Position numbers and translations under genes: made by a program
In this document: one piece after another, positions 13,478-49,451 of the stretch
Layout of the letters: the number at the start of each line of letters is the position of its first letter
Numbering within the stretch: the first letter of the stretch is position 1
NCBI GenBank assembly: GCA_049840735.1
Contig: JASGJN010000022.1
Span: 192,001-256,000 of the forward strand
From: Anaeromyxobacter sp.
Lineage (GTDB): Bacteria > Myxococcota > Myxococcia > Myxococcales > Anaeromyxobacteraceae
Reading direction: 5' to 3'
Length of the DNA: 64,000 bases
Notes under the pieces: model-generated
What the model was told of the DNA's origin: nothing
The model's input: the letters and a program-made list of their open reading frames with translations, nothing else
Database searches by the model: none

Positions 13478-14647
13478 TCACCACCCCTGCGCCGCCGCCG
13501 GCCGCGCCCCCACCGCCGCCTGGAGCGCCCGCTCCAGCCGCTCCGCCACGTGGCTCCAGAGGAACCGGCTGGCCACCCGGGCCCGGCCCGCCGCCCCCAT
13601 GCGCCGGGCGCGGAGCGGATCGGCCACCAGCCGCGCCAGCGCCGAGGCCAGCGCCACCGGATCGCCGGGCGGCACCAAGAGCCCGGTCTCGCCGTCGGCC
13701 ACGATCTCCGGCACCGCCTCGACGCGGGTGGCCACGCAGGGCACGCCGCAGGCCATGGCGTCCAGGTAGGCGATGCCGAACGGCTCGCGCAGCGTGGGGA
13801 CGCAGAGGACGCTGGCCTGGGAGAAGAGCCCGGGCAGCTCCTCCAGCGGCACCGGCCCCAGGTGGAAGGCGTTCTCCGGCAGAGGCGGCGGCCGGGGCGG
13901 CCCGGCGATCAGCAGCCGCGCCTTGGGGTGCTGGCGGCGCAGGCGCACGAAGGCGTCCAGCAGCACCGTCCCGCCCTTGCGCGTGAAGTCCTTGCCGGCG
14001 AAGAGGATGGTCCGGCCGTCGTCGCGCCGCGGCGCCCGGGCCGGGAAGACGTTGGCGCCGGCGCCCACCACCCGCACGCGCGCCGGGTCCACGCCGTAGT
14101 CGCGCAGCAGCGAGCCGGCCACGTGCTCGGAGAAGGTCGCGATCAGCGCCGCGCCGCGGTAGGCCTGCGCCTCTCGCCGGCGCCAGCCCTCGCCGTAGTC
14201 GGCCGGCGCCGGGAGGCCCGCCTGCGGCCAGGCCGGGCCGCGCATGCCCAGCGCGCGGGTGTGGTCGAGCAGCAGCGCGTAGGGGAAGGGCGGCGGCAGC
14301 CCGGGCGCGAAGAGCGCGCCGTTCTGGAGCACGATGTCCGGCGCCGGCCGCATGGTGCGCAAGAGCTGCCCGGCGCGGCGCGAGTGGGCGTCCCAGGCGA
14401 AGGTGGTGTTCCAGCGGTGCTGCAGGGCCTGCCGGCCGAAGCGGACGGCGGCGAGCGCCAGGTGGGCGAGCACCAGCGGGTGCGGGCGGGGCCGGCGCGA
14501 GGTCGCGTCGCGCGGCTCCAGCTCCCCGGTGGCGGCCACCAGCCGCAGGTCGTGGCCGCGCTCCACCAGCGCGCGCGCCACCGCGCCCGTGACGCCGCTC
14601 TGGGCGCCGTAGTGGACGTAGGCGATGTCGAGCCGGCCTGGGCGCAT
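13478..14647 (-). CDS. Glycosyltransferase family 4
   Basis: EPFGIAYLDAMACGVP, PEIVADGETGLLVPPGD; paralog of 35023-36174. Confidence 0.88.
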   Translation of the reverse strand: MRPGRLDIAYVHYGAQSGVTGAVARALVERGHDLRLVAATGELEPRDATSRRPRPHPLVLAHLALAAVRFGRQALQHRWNTTFAWDAHSRRAGQLLRTMRPAPDIVLQNGALFAPGLPPPFPYALLLDHTRALGMRGPAWPQAGLPAPADYGEGWRRREAQAYRGAALIATFSEHVAGSLLRDYGVDPARVRVVGAGANVFPARAPRRDDGRTILFAGKDFTRKGGTVLLDAFVRLRRQHPKARLLIAGPPRPPPLPENAFHLGPVPLEELPGLFSQASVLCVPTLREPFGIAYLDAMACGVPCVATRVEAVPEIVADGETGLLVPPGDPVALASALARLVADPLRARRMGAAGRARVASRFLWSHVAERLERALQAAVGARPAAAQGW

Positions 14648-14769
14648 CCGCTCCCCCCGGCCAGAAAGGTGCGGCCCGGGGGCGAGGAGGGGAAGCCGTG
14701 TGGGGCTCGCGCCCGGGGGACGGGCGGGGAGGCGGGCGGTCCGGGGGCGCGGGCGACAGGGACCCCTGG

Positions 14770-14809
14770 CCTTCGACTTCGGGCCTGCAGGCGCAGGCCC
14801 TACGCTCAG
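14770..14809 (+). repeat. Left part of a REP-like repeat interrupted by the IS
   Basis: CCTTCGACTTC-GGGCCTGC-aggc-GCAGGCCC-TACGCTCAG; the remainder GCCGAACGG lies at 16239-16247. Confidence 0.9.
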
Positions 14810-14896
14810 ATGGAATGAAGCGGCTGGCCTCCACCTCGGGGTGGTGGCACGAATGCCCCACAACGCGGTCAGAGCCGCAGAGAGTGGAGACCAGCC

Positions 14897-15928
14897 GTGG
14901 ACCATATTGGCATCGACCTGCACAAGAAGGACAGCCAGCTTTGCATCCTGAACGCGGAGGGCGGGGTTCTGGAGGTGCGGATCCCCACCCGGGCCGACCG
15001 GTTCGCCGAGGTGCTCGCGAACAGGCCGCGGGCCAAGCTCCTGCTGGAGGCCTCCACGGAAAGCGAATGGGTGGCGCGGCACATCGAATCGCTCGGGCAC
15101 GAAGTGATCGTGGCCGACCCGAATTACGCGCCGATGTACGGGACGCGGACGAGGCGGGTAAAGACCGATCGGCGAGATGCCCGAGCGCTGGCCGAGGCTT
15201 GCCGTTCAGGGACCTACCGAGCGGCCCACCGGAGGTCGGAATCCAGGCGGACGGTCGCTGTCCGCTTGTCGGTGAGAGACACGCTGGTCCGCACCAGGTC
15301 GCGGTTCATCACGGTGACCCGGACGTCCTTGCGGAGCCATGGGCTACGGGCCCCGAGCTGTGAAGCCGAGCACTTCGCGCGGGTGGTGTTGGAGATGGCC
15401 CTGCCGGACGAGGTCCGCGACGAGGTCGAGCCGTTGCTGCTGATGTTCGACACGCTGAACGCCCGGATCGCCAAGGCCGACGCTGACCTCGAGGCCATCG
15501 CCCGCGACAGCGCAGTGGTACGGAGGCTCACGACGGCGCCAGGCGTGGGCGTCGTGACGGCCATTGCGTACGACGTCGTCATCGATGATCCCAAGCGCTT
15601 CCAGAGTGCCCAGCAGGTGTCCGCCTACTGCGGCCTGGTCCCTAGCGAGCTGAGCTCGGGCGAGAAACAGCGCAAGGGGCGGATCACCAAGACCGGCAAC
15701 GCCAGGGTGCGCTGGCTTCTCGTCCAGGCCGCGCACTGCGTCTTGCGCAGCAAGAGCGCAGAGTCGCTGCCGCTGCGCGAATGGGCGGGGAAGATCCACC
15801 GGCGGAGGGGACGCGCAGTCGCCGTCGTGGCGCTGGCGCGCAAACTCTCCGGAATCCTGTTCGCGATGATGAGGGACGGGAAGGACTTCGACGGCAGCCG
15901 CACCTGCAGGGGAAACGCGATGGCCTAG
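14897..15928 (+). CDS. IS110-family DEDD recombinase/transposase
   Basis: IGIDLHK, LEAST, KTDRRDA (DEDD); APGVG, AYCGLVPSELSSGEK (catalytic Ser region), RITKTGN, VALARKL. Confidence 0.95.
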   Translation: MDHIGIDLHKKDSQLCILNAEGGVLEVRIPTRADRFAEVLANRPRAKLLLEASTESEWVARHIESLGHEVIVADPNYAPMYGTRTRRVKTDRRDARALAEACRSGTYRAAHRRSESRRTVAVRLSVRDTLVRTRSRFITVTRTSLRSHGLRAPSCEAEHFARVVLEMALPDEVRDEVEPLLLMFDTLNARIAKADADLEAIARDSAVVRRLTTAPGVGVVTAIAYDVVIDDPKRFQSAQQVSAYCGLVPSELSSGEKQRKGRITKTGNARVRWLLVQAAHCVLRSKSAESLPLREWAGKIHRRRGRAVAVVALARKLSGILFAMMRDGKDFDGSRTCRGNAMA

Positions 15929-16223
15929 ACGACCGAAATCGGACCCAGTCGGGCGGACGCCGGGCCGGAGATCCGGGAGTGAGGCGAAAGCGGGTTTCGA
16001 GACAGGGTGAGCGCGAGTTCGGCCTTGGCTGGTCACCAGGAACGGCCGTCGCTCAGATGGCGCCCCCTGCTCGAATCCCCCACTGCGCCGGCGGCACTGC
16101 CGCCCCTGTCGAGCGCGAATAGAAGGCTGATGGAACTCGCGTTCGCCTGACTCCCTGACCGATGGCCAACCAGCGCCGCCCAGGCTTCAGGACAAACGAC
16201 ATCACCGGCCCTTGACCGGGGAC
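15929..16223 (+). ncRNA. Putative seekRNA/bridge RNA region of the IS1111-type element
   Basis: Long stem 15975-15998/16132-16155; internal hairpins; GTTCGGCCT (16017-16025) is the reverse complement of core+right target; CGCTCAG (16050-16056) equals left target+core; ATAGAAG (16119-16125) equals right end+core. Transcript ends are unknown. Confidence 0.7.
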
Positions 16224-16256
16224 GCCGCTTCATAGAAGGCCGAACGGCCCGGCCAC

Positions 16257-16304
16257 CCGTTCGGCCTGAGCGCAGCCGCCGCGGAGCGGCGGCGGAGTCG
16301 AAGG
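16257..16304 (-). repeat. REP-like repeat, inverted partner of the IS-interrupted copy
   Basis: Reverse complement reads CCTTCGACTCC-GCCGCCGC-tcc-GCGGCGGC-TGCGCTCAGGCCGAACGG. Confidence 0.9.
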
Positions 16305-16341
16305 CCAGGCGCGGCTCGGCGGTCGTTGCGGCGCCGCTGGA

Positions 16342-16710
16342 CTACGCGTCCTTGGGCCGCTCGCCGTGGCGGGCGGTGACGACGGTGTGGATGCCGCCGC
16401 GGACCATGAAGTCGCCCACCACCTCGAGCCAGCGCGGCGCGATGGCGGCCACGATGTCGTCGCAGATGCGGTTGGTCACCGCCTCGTGGAACGTGCCCTC
16501 GTCGCGGAAGCTCCAGAGGTAGAGCTTGAGGCTCTTCAGCTCCACGCACTTCTCCGCCGGGATGTAGCGGATCCGGATGGTGGCGAAGTCCGGCTGGCCC
16601 GTCATCGGGCACACGCAGGTGAACTCCGGGCACTCCATCGCGACCTCGAACGGGCGCCCGGGCTTCGGGTTGGGGAAGGTCTGCAGCTCGCGGGAGGGCT
16701 TGGTGGCCAT
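16342..16710 (-). CDS. queF: PreQ0 reductase (7-cyano-7-deazaguanine reductase)
   Basis: EFTCVCPMTGQPDFA, VELKSLKLYLWSFR, FHE, RGGI. Confidence 0.93.
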   Translation of the reverse strand: MATKPSRELQTFPNPKPGRPFEVAMECPEFTCVCPMTGQPDFATIRIRYIPAEKCVELKSLKLYLWSFRDEGTFHEAVTNRICDDIVAAIAPRWLEVVGDFMVRGGIHTVVTARHGERPKDA

Positions 16711-22694: not shown

Positions 22695-24698
22695 ATGGAC
22701 GCGCCCTCCCAGACCTCGCTGCCCGAGAACGCCTACCGCCCGCTCAACCCCGGTGAGACCTACCAGCCGATGGTCCCGGCGACGCAGTCGCCGCCGGAGT
22801 CGACCTGGCGCTCGGTGCTGTGGGGCCTCCTCTTCTGCGCCATCTTCACCATCGCCTCGGCGTACTCAGGCCTCAAGGTCGGCCAGGTGATGGAGGCGGC
22901 CATCCCCATCTCCATCCTGGCCATCGGCCTGGCGCGGGTGTACGCGCGCCGCTCCAGCGTGCTGGAGAACGTCATCATCACCGGCATCGGCGGGAACTCC
23001 GGCGCGGTGGTGGCCGGCGCCATCTTCACGCTGCCGGCGCTCTACATCATGAAGCTCGACCCGCACCCCTGGCAGACCATCTTCATCTGCCTGGCCGGCG
23101 GGGTCCTGGGCGTCCTCTTCCTGATCCCGCTCCGCCGCTACTTCGTGCGCGAGACGCACGGGCAGTTCCCGTACCCCGAGGCGACCGCCATCACCGAGGT
23201 GCTGGTCACCGGCGAGAAGGGCGGCTCCCAGGCCAAGCTGCTGCTCCAGGCCACCGGCGTGGCCATGGTCTACGACTTCTTCGTCACCACGTTCCAGGTC
23301 TGGAAGGAGTTCATCGACTTCCGGTTCCTCCCGGTCGTGAACGGCCTCGCCCAGAAGGCGAAGATGACCCTCTCCTTCGACGGCGTGGGGTTCATCCTGG
23401 GGCTGGGCTACGTGATGGGGCTCCGCTCCTCCATGCTGCTCTGCGCCGGCGGGGTCCTCGCCAACCTGGTGCTGGTGCCGCTCATCTGGTTCATCGGGCA
23501 GCGGCTGCCCGACGCCGTCTACCCGGCCACCATCCCCATCTCGCAGATGGACGCGAACCAGATCTTCCGCGGCTACGTCCGCTACATCGGCGTGGGCGCC
23601 ATCGCCACGGCCGGGATCTTCGGCATCCTCAAGTCGCTCCGGATCATCGCCGGCTCCTTCGGCATCGCCGTGAAGGCGTTCCGCTCCGGGGGCGAGGCGC
23701 AGCTGGCGCGGACGGATCGCGACGTCTCGGTGATGACCATCCTCATCGGCGTGGTGGTGGCCACGCTGCTGGTGGCCGTGTTCATGGGCTCGCTGGGGGC
23801 CTCGCCGGCCGTGCTCGTCATCGGTGTGCTGCTCATCCTGCTGTTCTCCTTCTTCTTCACCACCGTGGCCGCCAACGCCATCGCCACCACGGCCCGCAAC
23901 CCGGTCTCGGGCATGACCATGCTGACGATCATCTTCTCGTCGGTGGTGCTGCTCCGGTTCGGCCTCTCCGGCCAGACGGGCATGTTCTTCGTCATGGCCA
24001 TCGCCGGCATGGTCTGCACTGCGCTCTCGGTCTCCGGCCAGACCATCACCAATCTCAAGACCGGCTACTGGCTGGGGTCGACGCCGGCGGCGCAGGAGCG
24101 TGCGAAGTTCCTGGGCCTGGTGGTGGCCGCGGTGGCGGCCGGCCTCACCATCGCGGCCCTGTCGGTGACCTACCAGTTCGGCGAGGCGCTGGAGGGGGAC
24201 GGGCGCCCGGTGCTGGTCGCGCCCCAGGCCTCCATCATGCAGTCGCTGGTGCAGGGGTTCATGAGCCAGCAGCCGGTGGCCTACCTGCTCTTCGGCGTCG
24301 GAGCGATGCTGGCCATCATCCTGGAGATGCTGAAGGTGCCGGCGCTCACCTTCGCCCTGGGCATGTACCTGCCGCTCGAGCTCAACTCGCCGGCCCTGGT
24401 CGGCGGCTTCCTCCACCACCTGGTGACCCGGCGTGCAGACAGGACCGGCGGCGAGGCCGGCCAGTCCATCCGCGAGAAGGGCGTGATCATCGCCTCGGGC
24501 CTGATGGCCGGCGGCGCCCTGGGCGGCGTGCTCGGGGCGGGGCTGCGGCTGGTCCCCGGCTACAGCGAGGACCTGATCCGCACGCCGTTCTACGGGGACG
24601 AGGCCATCTCGCAGTCGGTGAGCACCGTGGCCTTCCTCGGCCTGTGCCTCTACCTGTGGTTCGGCTCCGTCCGGAAGGCCAAGGCCGCCCGGGCCTGA
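22695..24698 (+). CDS. OPT/YSL-family oligopeptide transporter (second paralog)
   Basis: YSGLKVG, AIPISIL, FPYPEATA, NPVSGMT, LKTGYWLGSTP, APQA, GMYLPL, ASGLMAG. Confidence 0.9.
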   Translation: MDAPSQTSLPENAYRPLNPGETYQPMVPATQSPPESTWRSVLWGLLFCAIFTIASAYSGLKVGQVMEAAIPISILAIGLARVYARRSSVLENVIITGIGGNSGAVVAGAIFTLPALYIMKLDPHPWQTIFICLAGGVLGVLFLIPLRRYFVRETHGQFPYPEATAITEVLVTGEKGGSQAKLLLQATGVAMVYDFFVTTFQVWKEFIDFRFLPVVNGLAQKAKMTLSFDGVGFILGLGYVMGLRSSMLLCAGGVLANLVLVPLIWFIGQRLPDAVYPATIPISQMDANQIFRGYVRYIGVGAIATAGIFGILKSLRIIAGSFGIAVKAFRSGGEAQLARTDRDVSVMTILIGVVVATLLVAVFMGSLGASPAVLVIGVLLILLFSFFFTTVAANAIATTARNPVSGMTMLTIIFSSVVLLRFGLSGQTGMFFVMAIAGMVCTALSVSGQTITNLKTGYWLGSTPAAQERAKFLGLVVAAVAAGLTIAALSVTYQFGEALEGDGRPVLVAPQASIMQSLVQGFMSQQPVAYLLFGVGAMLAIILEMLKVPALTFALGMYLPLELNSPALVGGFLHHLVTRRADRTGGEAGQSIREKGVIIASGLMAGGALGGVLGAGLRLVPGYSEDLIRTPFYGDEAISQSVSTVAFLGLCLYLWFGSVRKAKAARA

Positions 24699-48713: not shown

Positions 48714-49451
48714 ATGGTGGAGCCCTTCCGCGAGCCGTTCGTCGTCCACACCTACGGAACCGACGCCTTCCTCACGCTGGCCACCCCGGCGCTGACCGGG
48801 TTCCTGATGGAGGCCGCCGGGCTGCACGCCCAGGCGCTCAACGTGGGCGTGGAGGGGCTCTGGGCGCGCGGGCTGTCCTGGGTGATCGGCCGGCTGCGGC
48901 TGGAGCTCGACCGGCCCATCCGGCTGGGCGAGACCCTGGAGATCGAGACCTGGCCCTCCGGCATCGACCGGCTGGCGGCGCTGCGCGACTTCCGCGTCAC
49001 CGCCGGCGGCGAGGAGGTGGCCCGCGCCTCGACGCAGTGGTTCGTGCTCGACCTCACCACCCGCCGCCCGGTGAAGCTGGAGGGCGTGCTCGACCCGCGC
49101 TTCCCGCGCGACGGCGCCCACGCGGTGGCCTTCACGCCCGGCAAGCTGCCCGAGCTGGCCACCTGGGACTTCCAGAAGCGGTTCCACATCCGCTACGCCG
49201 ACATGGACGTGAACGGCCACGTCAACAACGGCTCCTACCTGGCCTGGGCGCTCGAGGCCGTGCCGCGCGAGGTCTGGGCCGGCCTGCGCCTCTCCGCGCT
49301 GGAGGTGCAGTACCTGGCCGAGTGCCGCGAGGGCAGCGCCATCCTCTCGCGCCAGTCGCTCACCGGCGAGGCCGCCTACGCGCACGCCATCGTCCGCGAG
49401 GAGGACGGCAAGGAGCTGGCCCGGGCGACGACACGGTGGGTGAAGCGGTAG
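48714..49451 (+). CDS. Acyl-ACP thioesterase (double hot-dog)
   Basis: IETWP, RDF, W.VLD..TRRP, RYADMDVNGHVNN. Confidence 0.88.
   Translation: MVEPFREPFVVHTYGTDAFLTLATPALTGFLMEAAGLHAQALNVGVEGLWARGLSWVIGRLRLELDRPIRLGETLEIETWPSGIDRLAALRDFRVTAGGEEVARASTQWFVLDLTTRRPVKLEGVLDPRFPRDGAHAVAFTPGKLPELATWDFQKRFHIRYADMDVNGHVNNGSYLAWALEAVPREVWAGLRLSALEVQYLAECREGSAILSRQSLTGEAAYAHAIVREEDGKELARATTRWVKR

Follow-up and report, generated by a model that had tools for sequence, protein, structure and literature searches.

The element and its target site

The stretch of DNA analyzed here, termed the window (64,000 nucleotides of contig JASGJN010000022.1 of Anaeromyxobacter sp., positions 192,001 to 256,000 of the forward strand), contains at its positions 14810-16238 an insertion sequence of 1429 bp that is a member of the IS110 family and of its IS1111 type. 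Within 14300-16500 there is one open reading frame of 343 amino acids, and this is the gene of the transposase, a DEDD/Ser recombinase (14897-15928, GTG start), flanked by a noncoding left end of 87 nt (14810-14896) and a noncoding right end of 310 nt (15929-16238). An earlier note on this DNA had proposed that the noncoding region downstream of the transposase gene specifies an RNA whose guide segments read out both the target and the junctions of the element, and that the enzyme is an RNA-guided recombinase with a readable natural target. The analysis described here makes it very probable that positions 15975-16155 encode such a bridge RNA, also termed seekRNA. All features discussed lie on the + strand, which is the strand of the transposase gene, unless stated otherwise.

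The assignment to the IS110 family is based on the transposase, which is recognized by PF01548 (DEDD_Tnp_IS110, 50.2 bits with a cut-off of 29), PF02371 (Transposase_20, 83.8 bits with a cut-off of 21.3) and NCBIfam NF033542, "IS110 family RNA-guided transposase" (249.5 bits with a cut-off of 140), and on its mode of insertion, which is site- and orientation-specific, takes place at a short core common to donor and target and leaves no longer duplication. In an alignment of 18 sequences the catalytic-type residues D7, E51, D94 and S254 do not vary, and for D91 conservation is 90% or more, the matching of these residues to D11/E60/D102/D105/S241 of IS621 being by spacing only. IS1111 elements are described as encoding transposases of 330-350 residues with a GL-P----S(t)G motif (PMC11187229) and as having subterminal inverted repeats of 7-17 bp (PMC11208160). 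The window protein contains this motif as G246 L247 V P249 S E L S S254 G255, where G246, P249 and S254 are invariant in the same 18 sequences, and the element has inverted repeats of 10 bp, ATGAAGCGGC (14815-14824), located 5 nt inside the left end, and its inverted partner GCCGCTTCAT (16224-16233), of which the arm TGAAGCGGC is kept in relatives. As far as the sequence can tell, therefore, every IS1111 criterion examined, namely the inverted repeats, the downstream noncoding region and the length and motif of the protein, assigns the element to this type.

The source genome (6.67 Mb, 73.5% G+C) was searched at the DNA level and contains five copies of the element with mutual identities of 99-100%, and the boundaries given above, which include the right copy of the core dinucleotide AG (16237-16238), come from the comparison of their five junctions. 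All five are inserted at a single point, CGCTC-AG-GCCGAAC, and in one orientation. The left flank CTACGCTCAG and the right flank GCCGAACGG (16239-16247 in the window, where it forms the right half of the target) are constant in all five copies, and the left half of the target, CTACGCTC, together with the left copy of the AG core (14808-14809), occupies 14800-14809. The core is present at both junctions of the element and only once in empty sites. The uninterrupted 14-mer target, CGCTCAGGCCGAAC, occurs 101 times in the genome, and the occupancy of target sites is 5/106, with a single orientation throughout.

The 14-mer is itself embedded in a longer repeat unit that contains a variable G+C-rich hairpin. 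The unit, of which there are about 100 copies genome-wide, consists of CCTGGCCTTCGACTCCG, the hairpin and then CTACGCTCAGGCCGAACGG, and the arms of the hairpin vary among copies yet remain complementary. The units occur singly, as inverted pairs (including the pair that surrounds the insertion in the window, 14755-14809 and 16239-16300) and, on contigs C10 and C20, as tandem arrays whose periods are about 83 and about 112 nt. The two copies of the repeat that adjoin the element gave no match in Rfam.

Guide segments that match the target

All four strings that the earlier note had singled out in 15929-16223, and the stems that it had drawn, are present in the sequence as described. The segment GTTCGGCCT (16017-16025) is the exact reverse complement of the core plus right flank AGGCCGAAC (16237-16245), as had been claimed. 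Likewise, the segment CGCTCAG (16050-16056) equals the left half of the target plus the core, and it extends as CGCTCAGATGG to position 16060, making an 11-nt segment identical to the left junction (14803-14813). Further downstream, ATAGAAGGC (16119-16127) is identical to the right junction (16232-16240), and GATGGAA (16129-16135) is identical to 14809-14815. The level of agreement expected by chance was estimated from 3000 dinucleotide-preserving shuffles of 15929-16223. The 11-nt match to the left junction was reached in 2/3000 shuffles, a 10-nt match to the reverse complement of the right junction in 15/3000 and the GTTCGGCCT match in 28/3000, while the three guide matches together were reached in none (0/3000). 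Judged from this one copy, the case is good for the ensemble, moderate for the single 7-mers and absent for GATGGAA.

A second line of evidence comes from relatives of the element in which the flanking sequences differ. The earlier note had proposed that the right ends of homologous elements should be aligned and that the two target-matching segments should be found to covary with the target, and this is what was observed in two independent sets. In the first, one genome per species was scanned, which gave 80 loci with transposases 45-67% identical; eight were dropped (a frame of fewer than 320 codons or no stop codon), leaving 72 loci plus the window, and the right inverted-repeat arm was within reach in 60 of these 73, representing 45 distinct noncoding regions of relatives with 45-57% protein identity. 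To place the ends of each element, the conserved inverted-repeat arms were located automatically, and hence independently of the guides. The alignment reveals a conserved scaffold consisting, in order, of GAGCGCG, about nine variable nucleotides, a UGGC/GCCG hairpin, about nine further variable nucleotides with AG(A/T)TGG, GCGCC, UGCGCC, a hairpin, GAGCGCGA and A-Y-AGAAGG. The two variable blocks are the positions that align with 16017-16025 and 16050-16060 of the window.

These two blocks follow the flanks of the element in which they are found. With the longest common run as the measure and 5000 permutations of the flanks, the right-target guide, read as its reverse complement, matches its own right flank over 7.66 nt on average compared with 3.91±0.21 nt for permuted flanks (maximum 4.82; n=44 of the 45 regions), and the left-target guide matches its own left flank over 7.92 nt compared with 4.60±0.25 nt (n=38 of 45). 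Fifteen of the 28 distinct types of right-target guide match their own flank over at least 8 nt. When regions and strands were scanned systematically, the z values were 17.4 for the right-target guide, 13.8 for the left-target guide and 8.6 for the left-donor guide (see below), and the other combinations of blocks were near zero. A separate scan of metagenome contigs, which yielded 80 loci, 72 of them usable and with 44 distinct guide pairs, gave the same picture, with values of 6.97 nt compared with 3.85±0.20 nt for the right-target guide (n=39) and 8.56 nt compared with 4.72±0.25 nt for the left-target guide (n=36).

In the window, the right-target guide of the predicted RNA is GUUCGGCCU (16017-16025), which is complementary to the top strand of the core plus right target, and U16026 extends the match to the right junction to 10 nt. 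The left-target guide (16050-16060) consists of CGCUCAG, in the same sense as the left target plus core, and an extension AUGG that matches the first bases of the left end of the element. Among 31 distinct relatives, the first and second positions of this extension equal those of the left end in 27 and 23 cases, respectively, and those of the right flank in only 4 and 6, a signal that comes from few independent changes, mainly A versus T between two clades.

The closest relative for which DNA is available, L050 (67% protein identity), has the left junction and the left-target block of the window and a different right-target block. The two guides therefore appear to be modular and to vary independently. 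The right flank of L050 is off the contig, and its guides predict a hybrid target with a right half that starts with GATGAGC. The L050 region in question is 1147-1367 of a contig of 1367 bp labeled as a Brevundimonas metagenome-assembled genome, and since this contig is little else than the element, its assignment to a genome bin is doubtful. A further relative, L120, has a similar left half combined with a right half that is different again. Relatives of 64-73% identity were seen as proteins and were not returned by the metagenome scan, and covariation within the nearest clade is represented by L050 only. A second multi-copy example with readable guides is found on one Vicinamibacterales chromosome, where a related element (L087-L102 and L117) has at least 14 copies. 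Their noncoding regions are identical, and every copy is bordered by ...GGGGAG to its left and by GATCTTCA to its right.

Structure of the predicted RNA

The RNA is predicted by folding to be about 181 nt in length (15975-16155) and is closed by a long stem, P1 (15975-15998 with 16132-16155), that encloses a three-way junction. This stem, which had been noted earlier, appears in minimum-energy folds, and its duplex has a folding energy of -50.4 kcal/mol compared with -27.8 kcal/mol for shuffled sequences (z -5.7). A comparable duplex between the 5' and 3' parts, with z below -2, is found in 25 of 45 relatives, and no such outer duplex was found within the stretch tested in the Vicinamibacterales-type elements with longer tails.

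Within P1, the consensus computed with RNAalifold places both of the variable blocks in a single internal loop between two helices and adds a second stem with a hairpin. In the window, the first of these would be a target-binding arm (16006-16067) made up of stem P2 (16006-16014 with 16060-16067), the internal loop and hairpin P3 (16026-16029 with 16045-16048), while the second (16085-16116) would comprise stem P4 (16085-16089 with 16111 and 16113-16116) and hairpin P5 (16090-16094 with 16100-16104). In the model, the overall shape is thus a three-way junction of outer stem, target arm and second arm. Pairing is retained in 94.4% of the paired alignment cells, compared with 88.5% after shuffling and 30-56% when the partners are slid, and 12 of the 21 pairs have changes on both sides. 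These include five of the eight pairs of helix 1 and two of the four of helix 2; compensatory changes are found in three of the four pairs of helix 4, and helix 3 is nearly invariant. The many G-U pairs fix the strand of the RNA as +, the strand of the transposase. The internal hairpins that had been proposed earlier fared unevenly: GGCGGCA/TGCCGCC corresponds to a helix that is conserved in relatives, GCTCGA/TCGAGC competes with a helix favored by the comparison, and CTGG-tca-CCAG belongs to an insertion that is specific for the present element.

When 44 relatives, with the window excluded, were used to build a covariance model, this matched 16001-16143 (+) with 96.4 bits (E 1.6e-22), and the next match in the window has 15.7 bits. 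Across the source genome the model finds exactly five places, one per copy of the element and none of them solo. The RNA scaffold is without an Rfam family: a cmscan search of 14500-16600 with E values up to 10 returned only two matches of chance level, to the Rfam models P5 (18.8 bits) and P17 (18.5 bits), far below their gathering scores. The weak matches of the covariance model elsewhere in the window, at 49332-49388 (-) (15.7 bits, E 0.012) and 23820-23938 (-) (12.8 bits, E 0.062), are probably G+C-rich noise.

Putative donor-binding segments

In addition to the two guides for the target, a third segment follows the sequence of the element itself. The left-donor guide, AUAGAAG (16119-16125), reads in the sense of the element's right end together with the core and lies in the junction strand J4/1 (16117-16131). 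In relatives, it corresponds to the bottom strand of their own right ends with the z of 8.6 given above, and its second position (T, C or G) varies in step with the right end of the same element, with A in both for L109. When its extension is included, the match is 7.27 nt compared with 6.07±0.12 nt, and none of 2000 permutations was as high. The earlier note had described 16119-16127 as a match to the right junction. The match is exact and 16119-16125 is supported as a guide, but the two further nucleotides by which ATAGAAG continues into the flank are no general feature: 38 of 75 distinct relatives lack them.

For the fourth guide, that of the right donor, there is a weak candidate. The candidate, CCCCCACU (about 16077-16084), forms the 3' part of the junction strand J2/4 (16068-16084) and shows imperfect complementarity to the left end's top strand. 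A search of the relatives for exact 6-mers of a reverse-complement right-donor guide gave no consistent column. When gaps were allowed, complementarity at the family level was 4.03 compared with 3.36±0.12 for permutations, with 0/2000 as high, and the same-sense control gave no signal.

The earlier note had also assigned GATGGAA (GAUGGAA in the RNA, 16129-16135) to the left end of the element as a guide, and this assignment is not supported. The match is reached in 344/3000 shuffles and is therefore not above chance, and when this 3' part of J4/1 is compared with the left end in the same sense, it scores 4.15 compared with 3.82±0.15 for shuffled and 4.07±0.08 for non-cognate sequences and so has no cognate excess. 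In L050, moreover, the string is broken despite an identical left end. Positions 16132-16135 are within the outer stem P1, in keeping with a warning in the same note that some of the matches could instead be intramolecular stem partners.

Possible signals for expression

A scan of 14700-16400 returned neither a sigma-70-like promoter nor an intrinsic terminator. At 16212-16217, 27 nt from the right end, there is a -35-like box, TTGACC, and in 39 of 45 relatives TTGAC keeps a constant spacing of 22, 27 or 28 nt to the right end. The box is possibly the -35 half of a promoter that would be formed at the junction of a circular element, and such a promoter is described as one that would also transcribe the noncoding region (PMC11187229). 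No convincing -10 sequence was found across the joined ends.

The left ends of the relatives show a feature of another kind, situated 30-50 nt before the start of the transposase gene, where the reverse complement best matches the GAGCGCG(T) box of the RNA in about half of 41 relatives (alignment columns 40-49 in 15 relatives and 180-189 in six), although in sequence so rich in G+C no individual match exceeds what chance would give. The window version of this box (14862-14872) is degenerate, AACGCGGTCAG. It could be a third protein-binding box or could reflect pairing of the 5' leader with the RNA.

Alternative explanations

Several observations weigh against the proposal that 15975-16155 encodes a bridge RNA, and three other explanations have to be considered with them. 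In sequence of 73% G+C single 7-mers are not rare, CGCTCAG being reached in 167/3000 and ATAGAAG in 191/3000 shuffles. In 13 of the 28 types of right-target guide the match to the flank is shorter than 8 nt, and hence the guides do not always spell the site at which the element is found, possible causes being off-target insertions, assembly errors or the register of the alignment. The right-donor candidate of the window amounts to about five pairs with one bulge, as read by eye, and its family signal is modest. To these are added the absence of recognizable promoter and terminator signals from the region scanned, the frameshifting indels in the transposase gene of two of the five copies and a report that the downstream small RNA of the IS110-family element ISPpu9 is dispensable for transposition and is a separate mobile module with solo copies (PMC12288879).

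The transposase frameshifts are an argument for an explanation in which a genuine RNA gene is part of an element that survives in this genome as a relic, so that the matches would only record a past specificity. The low occupancy, with only 5 of 106 sites filled, would also agree with this. On the other hand, the 343-residue frame is open in three of the five copies, the copy in the window and that on contig C21 are identical over all 1429 bp, and guides and ends are intact in all five, where the only variable positions inside the RNA are 16030 and 16110 and the guides are invariant. We consider a relic to be very improbable. The two broken copies, G000:C4:42302-43733 (transposase indels of +2 and +1 nt) and the copy on contig C26 near 118167-119622 (+1 and +7 nt), have intact ends and guides, score 97.3 bits with the RNA model and could be moved in trans by the intact copies.

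Also very improbable is that the region, as a structured 3' untranslated tail or as a small RNA that is a mere passenger, plays no part in the choice of site, like Ssr9 of ISPpu9, in which case the matches to the flanks would be due to chance in G+C-rich sequence. The ease with which individual 7-mers arise, with GATGGAA (344/3000) in addition to the two given above, and the reported dispensability of the ISPpu9 RNA would both be as expected for a passenger. What is not expected is that the matches occur jointly, which was seen in 0/3000 shuffles, or that the guides follow the flanks across relatives in both of the sets examined, and the source genome has no solo copies of the RNA, unlike those reported for ssr9 (PMC12288879).

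Very improbable, finally, is the explanation that the region functions as DNA, either as subterminal single-stranded DNA that pairs with the target in the manner of IS200/IS605 elements or as a set of transposase-binding boxes. Covariation with the flanks is by itself silent on whether the partner is RNA or DNA, and no promoter-like site was found in 14700-16400. Against this explanation, the helices contain many G-U pairs that are specific to one strand (15 G-U at one pair and 11 and 42 U-G at others) and would be C-A mismatches on the other strand, and the enzyme is of the IS110-family DEDD/Ser type, whose dependence on RNA has been shown experimentally in relatives (PMC11187229, PMC11208160).

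Proposed mechanism

The bridge RNA encoded by 15975-16155 thus remains much the best explanation, and the reading of the element as an RNA-guided recombinase with a legible target is supported by the covariation, by the structure and by the IS1111 layout, while programmability would be expected from what is known of the family. The boundaries of the element, its target, the conserved structure and the three guides that covary with the flanks are observed here. Transcription of the RNA, its binding by the transposase, a circular intermediate and the order of strand exchange are attributed to the element by analogy with the family, and the following scheme is correspondingly conditional.

The outer stem would close the three-way junction, one arm of which would present the internal loop that binds the target, and the junction strands would form the donor-binding loop, pairing with the joined ends of the circular element. 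The RNA would be bound by the 343-residue DEDD/Ser transposase, and the complex would bring the circularized element together with the 14-bp target, where the internal loop would pair with both strands of the site around AG and strand exchange would take place at this core. Targeting of this kind would account for the finding that all five copies are at one point and in one orientation within a 100-copy repeat.

It is also conceivable, if rather unlikely, that in this large soil-bacterial branch of IS1111-type elements the integrated junctions, and not the naked target and donor, are what the guides for the bottom strand spell out. This idea arises because the left-target guide continues for 2-4 nt beyond the core, into the left end of its own element, and because the right-donor guide is degenerate and situated in the three-way junction. 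If it were true, the RNA would stabilize the product or the substrate for excision, doing on the bottom strand what the handshake bases do in IS621, and recognition of the left end would be largely due to the long inverted repeat and the protein.

Relationship to known systems

The protein family to which the transposase belongs is large, with 5,776 proteins at E≤1e-60 among 8,000 candidates scored, and no close named relative of the window element was found in the collections searched, the best match among plasmid-borne transposases having 35.5% identity. In the same collection, identities of 27% to the IS4321 family and 29% to the ISShdy1 family do not discriminate between IS1111 and IS110 groupings. 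A search of 5.8 billion proteins returned generic names only, with a nearest non-self match that is 73% identical. Within its own GTDB family the other transposases are at best about 40% identical, apart from one fragment of 109 residues with 66%, and these were excluded from the comparison. The end and target motifs of the element were not found in six of the seven supplementary files of PMC11187229, and in the material of PMC11208160 only unrelated matches were found.

Residues 177-285 of the transposase resemble NCBIfam NF052498, "TIGR-Tas system RNA-guided endonuclease", weakly and below the threshold (26.5 bits with a cut-off of 100). The C-terminal domains of IS110 transposases are reportedly linked to other RNA-guided proteins, and the weak match is in line with this.

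The class of RNA, its location in IS1111 elements and the donor site in a multi-loop have all been in the literature since 2024, and proteins of this type are already named as RNA-guided by NCBI. The element itself opens no new question. Its value is as a clean natural example of an RNA-guided recombinase, in a genome of high G+C content and in a 100-copy repeat, of which the 14-bp target can be read from the RNA. Among its relatives, one conserved scaffold of 146 positions carries different natural combinations of guides, at least 28 of them in the genome set and 44 in the metagenome set, and the collection could serve those who engineer bridge recombinases as examples of natural reprogramming.

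The element shares with ISPpu9 and ISPpu10 of Pseudomonas putida, which are also of the IS110 family, site-specific insertion into a multi-copy intergenic palindromic repeat and, with ISPpu9, a small-RNA gene downstream of the transposase gene (PMC12288879; bioRxiv 10.64898/2026.03.19.712850). It is unlike ISPpu9 in that the RNA carries guides that follow the flanks and has no solo copies in the source genome.

The element also resembles the IS1111 elements ISEc11, ISPa11, ISKpn4 and ISPst6, as described by Siddiquee et al. (2024; PMC11187229), in which the RNA is found downstream of the gene that encodes the transposase and the segment complementary to the top strand is 5' of the segment for the bottom strand. 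A long noncoding region at this position and the same order of guides are found here, as are subterminal inverted repeats with short terminal extensions, a specific short target and a transposase in the range of 330-350 residues with the GL-P----SG motif. The RNAs of those elements were shown to be expressed and to co-purify with the protein, unlike the RNA of the present element, which is predicted from sequence, and the seekRNAs reported there are predominantly of 82-96 nt, with longer forms of 148-172 nt, compared with about 181 nt here, a length given by folding only.

With the bridge RNA of IS621 (Durrant et al., 2024, PMC11208160; Hiraizumi et al., 2024, PMC11208158), which serves a recombinase of the same family, the predicted RNA would have in common the logic of four guides, for left and right target and left and right donor, each of which includes the core dinucleotide, with left guides that pair with the bottom strand and right guides that pair with the top strand. 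In both systems, bases adjacent to the guides match the product of recombination, as in the handshake idea put forward for IS621 (PMC11208158). Unlike the IS621 RNA as described in these reports, the RNA of the present element is encoded at the opposite end, its right guide is 5', which reverses the order in the loop, the core is AG where IS621 has CT, and the inverted repeats are long. The donor-binding bases also differ in that they lie in the three-way junction and not in an internal loop, an arrangement that matches the multi-loop in which Durrant et al. place the donor-binding bases of many IS1111 members (PMC11208160).

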